A DNA stretch of 18,727 nucleotides, taken from the IMG/VR virus record IMGVR_UViG_2802429219_000002, one strand, 5' to 3'. This DNA is from a virus (taxonomy: Duplodnaviria > Heunggongvirae > Uroviricota > Caudoviricetes). A program made the position numbers and the translations under genes. Each line of letters opens with the position of its first letter. Within the stretch, counting starts at the first letter, position 1. Under the pieces are notes generated by a model. It worked only from the letters and a program-made list of their open reading frames with translations, ran no database searches and was not told where the DNA came from. This document shows, one piece after another, positions 11,797-17,772 of this stretch.

Positions 11797-12177
11797 ATGG
11801 CAAAGGCATGGGATATAGAACCGTCAATATTTGCCGGGATGATTGAGGAAGATGTGGGGCTGAAAATTCGCTACATCGCTATGCAGATTCTTACTGCTAT
11901 TGATATTGCTGCTCCGGTTGATACCGGACGTTTCAGAAATAACAACCTGGTGTCGTTACAGCATCCCGATTTTGGTATATCTGATAACGTGGATCCGAAC
12001 GGTACGATTGCGGTTCAGCGTGGGATCGGGGTTATTTCGAAAGCTGCAAATTACGGAGTTATTTATATCCAGAATAACCTTCCTTATGCAGAGGCTCTTG
12101 AAAACGGTCATTCACAACAAGCGCCAACTGGCGTGTATGCCAACGCTTTTCATGGTGTTTTACAGGCTTACAAATGA
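11797..12177 (+). CDS. HK97 gp10-like neck / tail completion protein
   Basis: 126 aa with a PVDTGRFRNN motif characteristic of the HK97 gp10 family (recalled); ATG follows the upstream TAA directly. Confidence 0.65.
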   Translation: MAKAWDIEPSIFAGMIEEDVGLKIRYIAMQILTAIDIAAPVDTGRFRNNNLVSLQHPDFGISDNVDPNGTIAVQRGIGVISKAANYGVIYIQNNLPYAEALENGHSQQAPTGVYANAFHGVLQAYK

Positions 12178-12566
12178 CGTTTACTGAAATCAGAAATACG
12201 GTTATTTCCAGAATGACGGCACAGACGATTATTGATGGAAAAGACGTATTGTATCCGAACGCGCCAACGTTCGATCCTTCCGGTAAGTTAATCTGGGCGC
12301 GGTTAAGTAATATTCCCGGGCAGGCTGGAGTTAATGAAATTGGCGCGGGGCCGATTGTTTATCGCACGGGGATAATCATTATTCAGTTATTTGTCCCCGC
12401 AGGTTCTGGTTCAAAACTCATTACTGAGACAGCCGATAAATTGCGGGAACTGTTTGAGTTTCAGGATGACGATCGTCTCAGTTACCAGGCTGTTTCCTCA
12501 ATAGCCGTTGGCGAAAAGAATGGCTGGTTCCAGCTTAATCTTCAAATTCCATATCGCGCGCTCTAG
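12174..12566 (+). CDS. Tail terminator-like protein (gpU analogue)
   Basis: 130-aa ORF overlapping the previous gene by ATGA, immediately upstream of the major tail gene. Confidence 0.55.
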   Translation: MTFTEIRNTVISRMTAQTIIDGKDVLYPNAPTFDPSGKLIWARLSNIPGQAGVNEIGAGPIVYRTGIIIIQLFVPAGSGSKLITETADKLRELFEFQDDDRLSYQAVSSIAVGEKNGWFQLNLQIPYRAL

Positions 12567-12592: not shown

Positions 12593-13555
12593 GTGAGTTC
12601 AGGTGCAAAGGTTATCTCGGCATTTATCCGGGAGACGGTTGCAGGCACTACGCCAGCAAGTGGTGACTGGAGTTTATTAAAACGCACAAGCTGGGGAGTA
12701 AAACCCACCCAGAATAAAGGCGAAAATAATGAGATTGGTGGCTCCCGGATGGCTCAGGGGGCGACGCCTGGCACTGTGGATGTCGGCGGTGATGTTGGTA
12801 CCAAATTTCGCTGGGGTCAACATGATGATTTTCTTGCATCCTGTTTCGGCGCGGAATGGTCAGGCGATTCTCTGACAATGGGGAATGAGCGAATAACATT
12901 TTCTCTAGCGACCTATGCGTCCGATGTCGGAATTGCCTCTGTCGTCAGAGGAGCGCAGGTTGGCTCATGGAAAATGCAGATCCCTAACGACGGCGATATT
13001 ACAGCGACCGTAACCTTTGCCGGACTGGACTGGGAATCAAAGGCCGATGATACGAATTTTATCAAAGGCGAACCTGTGGATAGTGCAGGAAAGCTACGTT
13101 ATTCGTTTAAGGAGGTTTCAGCAGTAAGCCTGAATGGTGTTGCCGGAGGTAACGGTTTTTGTATCGACAGTTTTGATATTCAGTTCGATAACAAACTCCA
13201 GACACAGCGTTGTATCGGGACTGGCTCGCCTTATGCAGGAGCAAATATTCCGACTACTTTTACACCGTCCGGTACGGTGACGCTTTCATGGTCTAAAGCC
13301 GCGTGGGAAATCTGGAGTAAAACACTGACTGGAGAAACAGTTCCGTTCAGCTTTACGCTTTCGAATGGAGAGGGGGCATACACTTTCAGTTTCCCGAAGG
13401 TTCAGGTGTCAGGTGAATGGCCTGATGGGGGTAATAGCGACATTATCCAGGTTCAATTGAGCATTACCGCAGCAGATGAAGCACCTACGATAACCAGAAA
13501 AAAAAATTCCCCGGCTGCCGTGATCGCAAAAGCCAGTGCTGAGGCGATTAGTTGA
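12593..13555 (+). CDS. Major tail (tube) protein
   Basis: GTG start 12593 preceded by AGGAGG 12582-12587; 320 aa, Gly/Ser/Thr-rich beta-type composition; lies between the tail terminator and the G/GT chaperone genes, as in lambda (V). Confidence 0.7.
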   Translation: MSSGAKVISAFIRETVAGTTPASGDWSLLKRTSWGVKPTQNKGENNEIGGSRMAQGATPGTVDVGGDVGTKFRWGQHDDFLASCFGAEWSGDSLTMGNERITFSLATYASDVGIASVVRGAQVGSWKMQIPNDGDITATVTFAGLDWESKADDTNFIKGEPVDSAGKLRYSFKEVSAVSLNGVAGGNGFCIDSFDIQFDNKLQTQRCIGTGSPYAGANIPTTFTPSGTVTLSWSKAAWEIWSKTLTGETVPFSFTLSNGEGAYTFSFPKVQVSGEWPDGGNSDIIQVQLSITAADEAPTITRKKNSPAAVIAKASAEAIS

Positions 13556-13603: not shown

Positions 13604-14065
13604 ATGAGGTTATGGATGTTTATTCTTAATCAGAAAATTATCATTGGTGGAGAACGCTGGTTTACGCCAATGAAGGACTTAAAACCTGTAGACGGGTTAA
13701 AACTGTTGGTGGCAAGCAGCGATAACGATCAGTATCGCTCCCGTAATGCATTAATCCGTCGCCACATTGAGAAAATGGATGCCAGTTTGCACGTCGGAAC
13801 GAAGGAGTTTGATATTTCAAAGGTTTCCGAGGTGGATTCTGTTGATGATTTACTCATTGATAATGCCGCTCGTTATCTGCTGAAAGACTGGAAAGGGGTT
13901 GGTGAACTGGTTAATGGTGTTGAGGTTGCACTGGAATATACGGCAGAACGAGGGATCGCGCTGCTTAAGCAGAATCCAGAGTTGTACTGGCAGATCCTTG
14001 CAGAAGCAGCCAGCATCGCCCAGGGTAAAGAGCAGCAGAAGCAGGATACGATAAAAAAGCCATAG
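13604..14065 (+). CDS. Tail assembly chaperone (lambda gpG analogue)
   Basis: SD AGGGGGA 13589-13595 then ATG 13604; 153 aa, acidic, ending ...EQQKQDTIKKP*. The slippery heptamer A_AAA_AAG sits 4 nt before the stop. Confidence 0.75.
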   Translation: MRLWMFILNQKIIIGGERWFTPMKDLKPVDGLKLLVASSDNDQYRSRNALIRRHIEKMDASLHVGTKEFDISKVSEVDSVDDLLIDNAARYLLKDWKGVGELVNGVEVALEYTAERGIALLKQNPELYWQILAEAASIAQGKEQQKQDTIKKP

Positions 14066-14373
14066 CTGCCCAGCGGTGGTTATCGGAGTTCGGGGGAGAA
14101 AGGGGGGAAAAGGCAAGATGGAAGCGAGAAAAACTCAGGTTGCCACCGATACCGGAACCAGAAATAGACCCGGTGCTTAAGGAGTTGTTGTACGCCTATT
14201 CGGTAATATCCCGTGCCCGACGTTATGCTGGAATGGCTGGGGTGCCTTTGCCTTTATCTCTGACAGAGATAAATGAATATTTAGCCACTCATCCGGTATT
14301 GATTGAGCGCGATGAATTTGAAGCAGTGATCTTTGCACTGGATGACCAGTATTTTCAGGAGCAGTGTGTGTAG
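13604..14373 (+). CDS. Tail assembly chaperone GT fusion made by programmed -1 ribosomal frameshift (join 13604..14059 and 14059..14373)
   Basis: The -1 frame is open from the slippery site through 14373 (107 codons), reading KKAIAAQRWLSEFGGERGEKARWKREKLRLPPIPEPEIDPVLKELL...; the track shows this ORF only from an internal TTG at 14140. Confidence 0.65.
14053..14059 (+). promoter_or_regulatory. Slippery heptamer A_AAA_AAG for the G/GT -1 frameshift
   Basis: Zero-frame codons ATA AAA AAG (I K K) at 14051-14059; X_XXY_YYZ pattern with an open -1 frame downstream. Confidence 0.65.
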
Positions 14374-14493
14374 TTGTTAATTACGTACACTCTGTTACAG
14401 AGATGTGATGGTGTCTTTAATTAAATCGATGATGCTCCTGGAGAAAAGCATTGCGTGGCCTCGTAATCGCTATATCTACTATTATGTCGCCTG

Positions 14494-14518
14494 AAACCCA
14501 CTTCGCGGTGGGTTTTTT
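14494..14518 (+). terminator. Rho-independent terminator-like hairpin in the T-to-tape-measure intergenic region
   Basis: AAACCCAC (14494-14501), loop TTCGCG, GTGGGTTT (14508-14515), T-run to 14518; followed by SD AGGAG 14525-14529 and the tape measure ATG 14539. Confidence 0.55.
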
Positions 14519-14538
14519 GTTGTCAGGAGTTTTAATAA

Positions 14539-17500
14539 ATGGCAGAGCAAACCTCGCGTCTCGCAATAATTATTGATAGCACTGGAGCGAAAAATAATGC
14601 TGACAATCTGACCTCCTCATTAGTCAAAATGACGCAGGCTGGGGAAACTGCTGCAAATAGCGCAGGGAAAGTGACTAAGGCAACAGAAGATGAGAAGAAC
14701 GCGCTCGCAAAATTAAAAGCAGCTATTGATCCAGTTGGTGCCGCAATTGATACTGTCGGTCGACGCTATTCTGAATTAAAGAAATTTTTCGATAAAGGGC
14801 TTATTGATAAAGAAGAATATGAATTTCTTGTCCGTAAACTTAATGAAACCACAGAGGAATTGAGCGGGGTTGCGCAAGCGCAGAGAGAAGCCGAGAAGGC
14901 CGGAAAACTTGCTGCCGCCCAGCAGGAAGCGCAGGCTCAGGCCTTTCAAAGAATGCTGGACAAGATCGACCCTCTGGCTGCGGCGCTAAGAAATCTTGAA
15001 CAACAGCATGATGAACTTAATGCTGCGTTTGCATCCGGGAAAATAAATGGTTCTCAGTTTGAGAATTATAGCCGAAAAATACAGGAAACACGGCGAGAGC
15101 TTACCGGAGAGGCTCAGGCAGAGCGAGAAGCAGCAAAAGCGCATGATGAACAGGTTGTTGCTTTGCAACGTCTGATTGCTCAACTTGATCCTGTCGGAAC
15201 TGCTTTTAATCGTCTGGTAGAACAACAGAAACAGCTCAATGAAGCAAAAGCTAAGGGGATGCTTTCTCCTGAAATGTATGAGGAGCTTTCTGGAAAACTT
15301 CGTGCTATGCGGAGTGAGCTTGAGGTTACTCAATCACAATTAAGCAAAACCGGAATGTCGGCAAAACAAACGGCTTTTGCTATGCGCATGTTGCCTGCAC
15401 AAATGACGGATATTGTTGTTGGGTTGTCCACTGGTCAGTCGCCATTTATGGTGTTAATGCAGCAGGGCGGCCAGCTAAAAGATATGTTCGGTGGGATTGG
15501 CCCGGCGATCAAAGGTGTAGGTTCTTATGTGCTGGGATTAGTTAATCCTTTTACCCTGGCCGCAGCAGCCGTTGGGGTCTTAGGACTGGCTTACTATAAA
15601 GGCTCTCAGGAGCAGGACGAATTTAATAAATCTCTTATTCTTACCGGAAATCAGTTGGGGACAACCAGCGGGCAATTGGGCGATATAGCTCAACGTGCCG
15701 GGAATGCGGCTGATTCGACAACTGGTGCTGCGGCGGCAGTATTAAATCAGCTTGTGCGTTCGGGAAAGGTAGCGAGCAGTTCGCTGGAGCAAGTGACGAC
15801 AGCGATAGTAAAAACGAGCGAAGTAACAGGAATATCAACCGAACAACTGGTTAATGACTTCAATGAAATTGCAAAGGATCCTGTCAGTGCCATATCAAAA
15901 CTTAATGATCAGTACCATTTTCTGACACTTGCGACTTATAACCAGATTAAGGCGCTACAGGATGAAGGGAACCAGCAGGAGGCCGCCCGCATTGCGACAG
16001 AAGAATACTCATCCTCAATGATCCAGCGCACCAACCAGATTAAAGAAAATCTTGGTTATCTTGAGACTGCATGGAAAGCTGTCGCAGACTCCGCAAAATG
16101 GGCATGGGATTCCATGCTGGATATTGGCCGTGAGGCCTCCCTTGATCAAAAAATCTCAGATGTTCTCCGTCAAATTGATGAAATAGAAAAAAATACCCGA
16201 CCCGGAGTTTTCGGGTTAGGTGGCATTGGAGATGGCGGAGCTCAAAATAAAAGGCTGGCACGATTAAAGCAGCAATTGGGCGTACTTCAAGCAGAAAAAA
16301 TTGCTCAGGACGTACTAAATTCATCAATAAACGATTACAACAAGCGACAACAGGAAGGAATTGAACTCAGACAGAGAGCAGATGCCTTTTCAAAACAATA
16401 TCAGACCCGGGAGCAGCAGAGAGCTAGTGAACTTGCAAAACTGGAAAAGCTAAAGAATCAGTATTCAAAGGAAGAATATAATAATCTTATCGCTCAAATA
16501 AATGAGCGTTATAAAGATCCAAAGCAACCAAAGGCGAAAGGTTATTCTGATGATGCAGCCCAACGAATGATTGATCATCTGAATCAACAGAATGCGTTAC
16601 TAAGTTCACAAGCTGAGTTGACCGTTAAATTAAGTTCCTCTGAACAGGAACTGGTTAAGTGGCGTCAGCGGATTGCCGACCTAGAGTCACGACCATCAAC
16701 GAAATTAACCCAGGATCAGAAATCGCTTCTCTTACACCGGGAAGAAATAACCGCGTTGATGGAGAAAAATGTTGCGATTGAAAAAAATAACAGGCTAATC
16801 AAGGAATCCGCCGAAATAACAGCATGGCGTGATTCATTGCAGGCTTCGATTGATAATCGTCAGCAGGGGTATGATATTCAGATTGCTGGTTATGGGGTTG
16901 GCGATAAAAATCAGCAACGCCAGCAGGAATTACTGCGGATTGAACATGGATATAACAATCAGCGTCTGCAACTTGAACGTGACTATGCAGATAAATCCCG
17001 TGGAATGTCAGATCATGTTTTTCAAGAGAAAATGCAGGCTCTGAATGATGCTCTGGAACGGGAAAAAGAAATTGTCAGACAGAAAAACGAGCAGCTCGAT
17101 ATTCAGGCAGGAGACTGGGTTAGTGGTGCCTCCCAGGGATTCAATAACTGGCTGGATGACACTAAGGATATCAGTGAGCAGATAAAATCAACCACGACTC
17201 AGATGTTTGATGGGATGACCGATGCGCTGGGTGATTTTGTCACGACAGGCAAGGCAAATTTTCGTTCTTTCGCTACTTCCGTGATTTCGGATCTTAGTCG
17301 AATAGCATTAAAGGCTTCAATTACTGGGATTTTCGACAGCATTAGTAACAGTTCTTCTGGGGGGATTTTAGGAACTATCGGGAGTGCTATTAGTAAATTT
17401 ATTCCGAATGCAAAGGGCGGTGTTTATGAGTCTCCGTCATTGAGCACGTATTCGAACGGTATTTATGATTCCCCGCAATTTTTTGCTTTTGCAAAAGGGG

Positions 17501-17772
17501 CTGGTGTTTTTGGTGAGGCTGGACCGGAAGCTATTATGCCATTAACACGAACTTCCGATGGTTCTCTTGGTGTCAGAGCTATTAATAGTAAAAGTGGTAA
17601 TGGAGGCGGAGATATTACCTATGCCCCTGTATACCAAATCACTATTCAAAATGACGGCCAGAATGGAGAGATTGGCCCTCAGGCAATAAAAGCACTTATG
17701 GGGATGGTTGATCAGCGGGTGCAGGGCAATCTGTTAAATATGCGACGTGATGGGGGAATGTTAAGTGGCTAA
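14539..17772 (+). CDS. Tail tape measure protein (lambda gpH analogue)
   Basis: 1077-aa ORF, long Ala/Gln/Glu/Lys-rich coiled-coil-like N-terminal half, hydrophobic central segment ([27 protein letters not shown]), located between GT and M. Confidence 0.9.

Follow-up and report, generated by a model that had tools for sequence, protein, structure and literature searches.

A predicted −1 ribosomal frameshift of the G/GT class at the tail assembly chaperone genes of a Rac-type Salmonella phage, with G corresponding to full-length ydaY

In phage lambda, a −1 shift near the 3′ end of gene G leads onto T, an ORF that has no start codon of its own, and the G/G-T pair lies between the major tail and tape measure genes (Levin, Hendrix & Casjens 1993; Xu, Hendrix & Duda 2004, 2013, 2014). 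The mechanism has been described for lambda with a G:GT ratio of about 30:1 (PMC5009743). The lambda heptamer is G_GGA_AAG, no conserved RNA stimulator accompanies it, and the two proteins belong to the Pfam families PF06894 (G) and PF06223 (T). A different Pfam family, PF06222 (Phage_TAC_1), holds the HK97-type chaperones (PDB 2ob9), including E. coli O157 ECs1801, which is cluster A_AAA_AAG_25 of Sharma et al. 2014 and represents a previously recognised E. coli tail-chaperone cluster using A_AAA_AAG. Frameshifting in an HK97-like TAC cluster was measured at 6–7% (PMC3711429). The heptamer A_AAA_AAG, read by the same tRNA-Lys, is also that of E. coli dnaX (gamma/tau), which has an upstream Shine–Dalgarno-like element and a downstream hairpin and reaches an efficiency of approximately 50% (PMC3711429); its frameshift product is the shorter of the two proteins. 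In E. coli reporters, A_AAA_AAG and G_GGA_AAG gave 0.29% and 0.28% frameshifting as bare sites, and 39% and 43% when combined with the IS3 stimulator (PMC4066793 Table S3). Finally, the Acinetobacter phage vB_AbaS_TRS1 (NC_031098) carries TRS1_18 and TRS1_19, the latter already annotated as a two-piece CDS, with G_GGA_AAG located 78 nt before the G stop.

Here we analysed a window of 18,727 nucleotides, which is 100% identical to Salmonella phage SPF_0923 (ON032529.1; window coordinate = record coordinate − 35) and represents an intact Rac-type phage. The features relevant to the G/T region are as follows.

12174–12566, + strand: tail terminator gene (PF13554)
12593–13555, + strand: tail tube (major tail) gene, directly 5′ of G (PF18906 Phage_tube_2, 9.4e-32)
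13606–13609, + strand: putative Shine–Dalgarno-like GAGG, 6 nt before the G start at 13616 (from reading of the sequence)
13616–14065, + strand: gene G, predicted tail assembly chaperone of the YdaY family, 149 aa, TAG at 14063–14065
14053–14059, + strand: slippery heptamer A_AAA_AAG, proposed −1 shift site (sequence, frame and comparative evidence)
14059–14373, + strand: T segment, 104 codons in the −1 frame, first codon GCC at 14059, TAG at 14371–14373 (from translation)
13616–14373, + strand: predicted composite GT, 252 aa (13616–14059 in frame 0 and 14059–14370 in frame −1, base 14059 being read twice)
14539–17772, + strand: tape measure gene, directly 3′, 1077 aa (PF06791 TMP_2, 2.6e-81, plus PF09718 and PF24622)

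The gene order is thus terminator, tube, G, T and tape measure, and the same order is found in relatives. The G/T pair sits between the tube and tape measure genes, the placement typical of a G/GT cassette. Elsewhere, the window carries trkG (288–1763; TrkH, 2e-143), a full-length ynaK encoding a ParB-like protein of 263 aa (1901–2692), and genes for a TAGT glycosyltransferase, terminase, portal, MuF, scaffold and P22-like coat proteins.

The original prediction had assigned this locus to the G/GT strategy of lambda-like siphophages. The strategy itself is borne out by the synteny, by the match to the tail chaperone family phrog_313 described below, by a conserved slip site and by a T frame that lacks a start; relatedness to lambda in sequence is not. 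When lambda G and T were compared with those of the window, as had been proposed, the layout proved to be the same, but hhalign assigned a probability of 0.2% to both G versus gpG and T versus gpT, and neither protein matched the corresponding lambda Pfam family, G of the window belonging to the PF27119 family and T having no Pfam family. The overlap between the two reading frames is also shorter, at one codon compared with approximately six codons in lambda as annotated, and the window uses A_AAA_AAG in place of lambda's G_GGA_AAG, which occurs exactly in one relative (L090). Like lambda, and unlike dnaX, the window shows no conserved stimulators; the resemblance to dnaX lies in the identical heptamer, the same tRNA-Lys and the same host group, and the frameshift product at the window site is the longer protein. 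The HK97-type protein ECs1801 was also considered as a possible homologue, and was rejected as unrelated in sequence (BLASTP E = 1.0) and as a member of another Pfam family (PF06222). The closest relative with an annotated join is that of TRS1, which is a distant homologue of both halves with the same synteny and a join at the homologous position: its T part is 39% identical (E 4e-6) and its G is 32% identical over 62 aa. TRS1 differs in its host lineage and in the distance from heptamer to G stop, which is 3 nt in the window.

Based on the sequence, we consider it approximately 90% probable that G and T are decoded by a programmed −1 ribosomal frameshift of the G/GT class. In the proposed scheme, most ribosomes would start on G at 13616, terminate at the TAG at 14063 and yield the 149-aa chaperone. 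A minority would shift with Lys tRNAs on AAA (14054) and AAG (14057), both slipping back by one base and re-pairing with AAA and AAA. Reading would resume at GCC (14059) and continue over 104 codons to 14373, giving a 252-aa GT protein, and the T segment would be produced only as the C-terminal part of GT. The predicted junction is ...QDTIKK-AIAAQRW..., with two lysines, within the junction peptide ...DTIKKAIAAQRW.... By analogy with lambda, many copies of G and a few copies of GT would coat the tape measure protein, the T domain would then recruit the tube protein, and neither G nor GT would stay in the virion.

The 3′ end of G reads CAG GAT ACG ATA (14051) AAA (14054) AAG (14057) CCA (14060) TAG (14063–14065), which places AAAAAAG at 14053–14059 in the G frame, with the phase A_AAA_AAG. 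A single codon (3 nt) stands between heptamer and stop, corresponding to 4 nt from the last base of the heptamer to the first base of the stop, exactly as had been claimed. The −1 frame is open from 14029 to 14370 (114 codons, stop at 14371–14373) and overlaps G by 12 codons; the 107 open codons given in the original prediction are correct when counted from 14053 with the stop included. The statement that T appears in the ORF list only as an ORF started by TTG was also accurate (14140–14373), and the GenBank record uses another TTG, at 14188. The junction had to be revised. It had been proposed as ...DTIKK/KAIAAQR..., with an additional lysine, but tandem −1 slippage reads GCC (14059–14061) next, giving ...DTIKK-AIAAQR....

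The presence of the heptamer alone proves nothing, because AAAAAAG occurs eight times in the window against 6.9 copies expected; the weight lies in its frame, position and conservation and in the open −1 frame. We estimate the odds of a 104-codon open −1 frame in random sequence as (61/64)^104, or approximately 0.7%. A second slip site was sought in the purine tract at 14093–14115 and rejected, as the tract contains no X_XXY_YYZ motif in the phase of the T frame and is not conserved in relatives. At the 5′ end of G, an alternative in-frame ATG at 13604 would extend the protein to 153 aa. The start at 13616 is likely to be the correct one, since the putative GAGG lies 6 nt upstream, the invariant Met of the homologues aligns there, and the GenBank record uses the same start.

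G is a tail assembly chaperone by identity. It matched phrog_313 ("tail assembly chaperone") with an E-value of 4e-46 over residues 5–153. The conceptual fusion of G and T aligned with positions 13–246 of the 258 positions of phrog_313 in a single stretch, scoring 174 bits compared with 159 bits for G alone. The T segment matched phrog_1189 (1.4e-36) and, weakly, the C-terminal part of phrog_313, and its match to PF23812 (Phage_TAC_18) was below threshold. G had no match in a copy of Pfam lacking PF27119 (Phage_YdaY); this family was assigned to 120 of 120 homologues of G among the matches listed. Copies of G that are 100% identical in E. coli are annotated as ydaY. Searches of NCBIfam returned no family matching G, T or GT, and a PDB sequence search with the G profile returned no match. 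In a fold search with the predicted model of G, the best PDB match was the HK97 tail assembly chaperone, albeit a weak one, and nearly all named matches in BFVD were tail or tape-measure chaperones. The predicted model of T is of low confidence (pLDDT 61, pTM 0.34).

To compare the site across relatives, we gathered approximately 200 related loci from species-representative genomes, IMG/VR contigs, assemblies and GenBank phages; a scan of viral contigs with the Erwinia G protein found nothing. The slip-site count covers the 192 loci with an intact T (E. coli, Citrobacter, Klebsiella, Erwinia and Pseudomonas), and as these loci are phylogenetically non-independent, the counts overstate the number of independent observations. 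In 192/192 loci, the T frame is entered at one and the same aligned position, at a site ending in A_AAG. Loss of the open −1 frame or of the slippery site in homologues had been named as the result that would speak against a frameshift, and both are kept throughout this set. Four forms of the heptamer were found at this position.

A_AAA_AAG: 166 loci (Escherichia, Shigella, Citrobacter, Klebsiella and others)
G_GAA_AAG: 23 loci (Pseudomonas phiPSA1-like; L094, L096, L179–L199)
G_GGA_AAG, the heptamer of lambda: 1 locus (L090)
C_GCA_AAG, followed directly by TAA: 2 loci (L091 and Erwinia phage Gungnir39, L095)

In L090, GTA-AAA is replaced by GTG-GGA, so that three bases differ together (the wobble position of the Val codon and positions one and two of the codon that follows) and a canonical heptamer is kept. 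At the homologous place, the Acinetobacter phages TCUAN1 and TRS1 use G_GGA_AAG; both stand outside the 192 loci, being too divergent for the motif search used in that count. G_GAA_AAG of Pseudomonas and C_GCA_AAG of L091 and Gungnir39 are non-canonical, and the P-site Glu tRNA at the Pseudomonas site would re-pair with GGA. The comparison suggests that the A_AAG tetramer may be sufficient for the slip, possibly helped by an adjacent stop. In several Pseudomonas prophages, a stop in the −1 frame lies four codons upstream of the slip, which confines entry into the T frame to approximately 12 nt. The 0-frame stop of G, by comparison, drifts among the loci (+0, +3, +21 or +105 nt from the heptamer) with the −1 frame still open and conserved, and its exact position is evidently not critical. 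With tblastn, 47 phage records matched; 27 of them yielded both halves in two neighbouring pieces, and most of the remainder yielded only the T part.

These variants also bear on how the frame is changed. If RNA polymerase dropped one A of the A6 run, a fraction of the mRNAs would encode GT in a single frame. The site does have six consecutive A residues, and realignment on poly-A tracts is known, but the documented cases involve runs of at least 8–9 A or T (PMC3711429), and the homologous sites G_GGA_AAG, G_GAA_AAG and C_GCA_AAG have A runs of only three to four. What is conserved is A_AAG with its codon phase fixed, which is the mark of tRNA-Lys slippage and not of a homopolymer. We therefore regard transcriptional slippage as very unlikely. 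Because A_AAG is conserved and phase-locked and the A runs of the homologous sites are so short, ribosomal slippage of tRNA-Lys is indicated, and we infer that the shift is ribosomal.

The T frame is clearly a coding frame, conserved from the first codon after the slip and under purifying selection, as judged from sequence comparison. Pairwise differences among 113 distinct T sequences, which are phylogenetically non-independent, numbered 173k, 143k and 338k at the first, second and third codon positions, and the first 30 codons alone showed the same third-position excess (39k, 40k and 78k). Between the nearest upstream stop of the −1 frame and a conserved Trp, no ATG, GTG or TTG was present in 77 of 78 distinct contexts. 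The first possible start of T lies 14–52 codons past this Trp, and in the window at +21 (TTG 14140). Accordingly, 27 codons separate the slip site from the first possible start in the window, and this segment is conserved from E. coli to Erwinia, with a consensus of roughly A-I-x-A-Q-x-W-L-x-E-F-G-G-E-x-G-E-K-A-x-W-x-R-E-K-L-x-L-P-P.

There is little room, on these data, for T as a separate small gene translated from an internal TTG (14140 or 14188) with no fusion to G, a reading that we consider very improbable. It corresponds to the annotation produced by gene callers, GenBank and RefSeq, which record a stand-alone "hypothetical protein" of 61–77 aa, and an AGGAG at 14180–14184 lies just before TTG 14188; the spacing between the two, however, is only 3 nt. 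The conserved 27-codon segment with its third-position excess precedes any possible start and has no start codon ahead of it in nearly all contexts, the annotated starts vary from record to record, and phrog_313 is matched from end to end by the fusion. T proteins in the databases are 60 to 138 aa long and have arbitrary starts, all named "hypothetical". Given the lack of start codons and the arbitrariness of the annotated ones, an independently translated T is excluded as the source of the conserved N-terminal segment.

That a chance heptamer lies beside a chance ORF, or that a once continuous GT gene was broken by a frameshift mutation, is extremely improbable: the heptamer is at chance frequency in the window and T is disrupted in some related prophages (L030, L032 and L047), but the two-frame arrangement recurs in the 192 loci of Enterobacteriaceae, Erwinia and Pseudomonas and in the two Acinetobacter phages, it is present in isolated phages with complete genomes, the source record included, the slip-site variants retain function-compatible motifs, and an inactivating mutation would not persist over such divergence with the downstream frame under purifying selection.

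Returning to the ribosomal frameshift, we searched for stimulatory elements around the heptamer. A hairpin at 14060–14086, beginning directly after the heptamer, has a predicted stability of −14.4 kcal/mol with a z-score of +1.0, and is thus no more stable than shuffled sequence. The consensus fold of eight homologues reached only −3.8 kcal/mol, and no conserved downstream RNA structure was found. At the stimulatory spacing of 10–14 nt upstream there is no Shine–Dalgarno-like element; the only candidate is an AGGA located 6 nt upstream, which is missing in L092. Since no stimulator was found and lambda itself shifts at a low rate, a low efficiency is suggested.

A more speculative and rather doubtful reading is that the family forms a natural series in which slippage of a single tRNA-Lys sets the G:GT ratio, A_AAG being the only invariant element (the P-site codon varies among AAA, GGA, GAA and GCA) and no RNA stimulator being conserved. 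The stop after the slip in two members and a strongly conserved nascent peptide, ...IAQGKEQQxQ(E/D)T(V/I)KK, might assist, in place of classical tandem slippage combined with mRNA structure. As a corollary of this tentative reading, K-12 ydaY would keep an intact, potentially active recoding site together with an unannotated T ORF in the Rac remnant.

The G/GT strategy is well known; what is new here is an unannotated member in a Rac-type phage, in which G is full-length ydaY. The frameshift is unannotated in SPF_0923, in nine vB_EcoS phages, in the Klebsiella, Erwinia and Pseudomonas relatives and in every E. coli RefSeq row inspected. T is either a truncated "hypothetical protein" or omitted in the source record, in its close relatives among phages and in the E. 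coli RefSeq records that were inspected. Among complete E. coli genomes, 1,074 of 5,426 carry the region, and the records inspected give no GT product. Sharma et al. 2014 listed five prophage clusters, none of which is the YdaY cluster, and our literature search on ydaY found no paper linking the gene to a frameshift. The value of the finding lies mainly in correcting the annotation of T, GT and the truncated G, in the function of ydaY and in the comparative material. With four slip sites that are interchangeable in nature at a single homologous position, the family provides test cases for the rules of −1 frameshifting and for prediction tools.

The E. coli K-12 sequence (L205) matches the window only from approximately 13714 onward, and its ydaY (119 aa) therefore corresponds to a C-terminal remnant of G. 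Comparison of the sequences places the predicted K-12 deletion from inside ynaK to inside G. We can assign the uncharacterised ydaY of K-12 to the Rac tail assembly chaperone, of whose gene it is the C-terminal remnant. K-12 retains both the slippery site and the T ORF (100% intact), with T left unannotated. RefSeq PGAP gives YdaY the 119-aa K-12 start even where the 149-aa G is intact, for example in E. coli G3 (L204 447–806, corresponding to approximately 13706–14065 of the window). This truncated start seems to be an annotation artefact inherited from the K-12 remnant.

Several further variants were observed among the relatives. In one lineage of IMG/VR prophages (L069–L076), the G stop TAG is replaced by TTG, which extends the 0 frame by 105 nt and gives a G of approximately 183–188 aa, with the heptamer and the T-frame protein unchanged. 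In the E. coli prophages L030, L032 and L047, the heptamer and G are intact and the T frame is truncated or disrupted; these sequences probably come from decaying prophages or contig ends. The sole continuous G-T protein found was P0001 (E. coli NB16F79_39920, 240 aa), a deletion variant, either natural or arising from the assembly, that joins G to the T frame ahead of the heptamer (...ILAEA|GYDKKAIAAQR...) and would make GT only. By analogy with lambda mutants that make GT only, a tail assembly defect would be predicted for such a prophage.

In the gap that separates the T stop from the start of the tape measure gene, the tail operon of the window contains a 29-aa ORF with a GTG start (14405–14494), and a strong terminator-like hairpin of 10 pairs followed by a T run lies 3′ of this ORF (14493–14516, within the region 14405–14526). 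Relatives carry extra moron-like genes in the same gap, for example a membrane protein gene in a Klebsiella phage locus (L098) or ORFs of 165–227 aa in L090 and L091.
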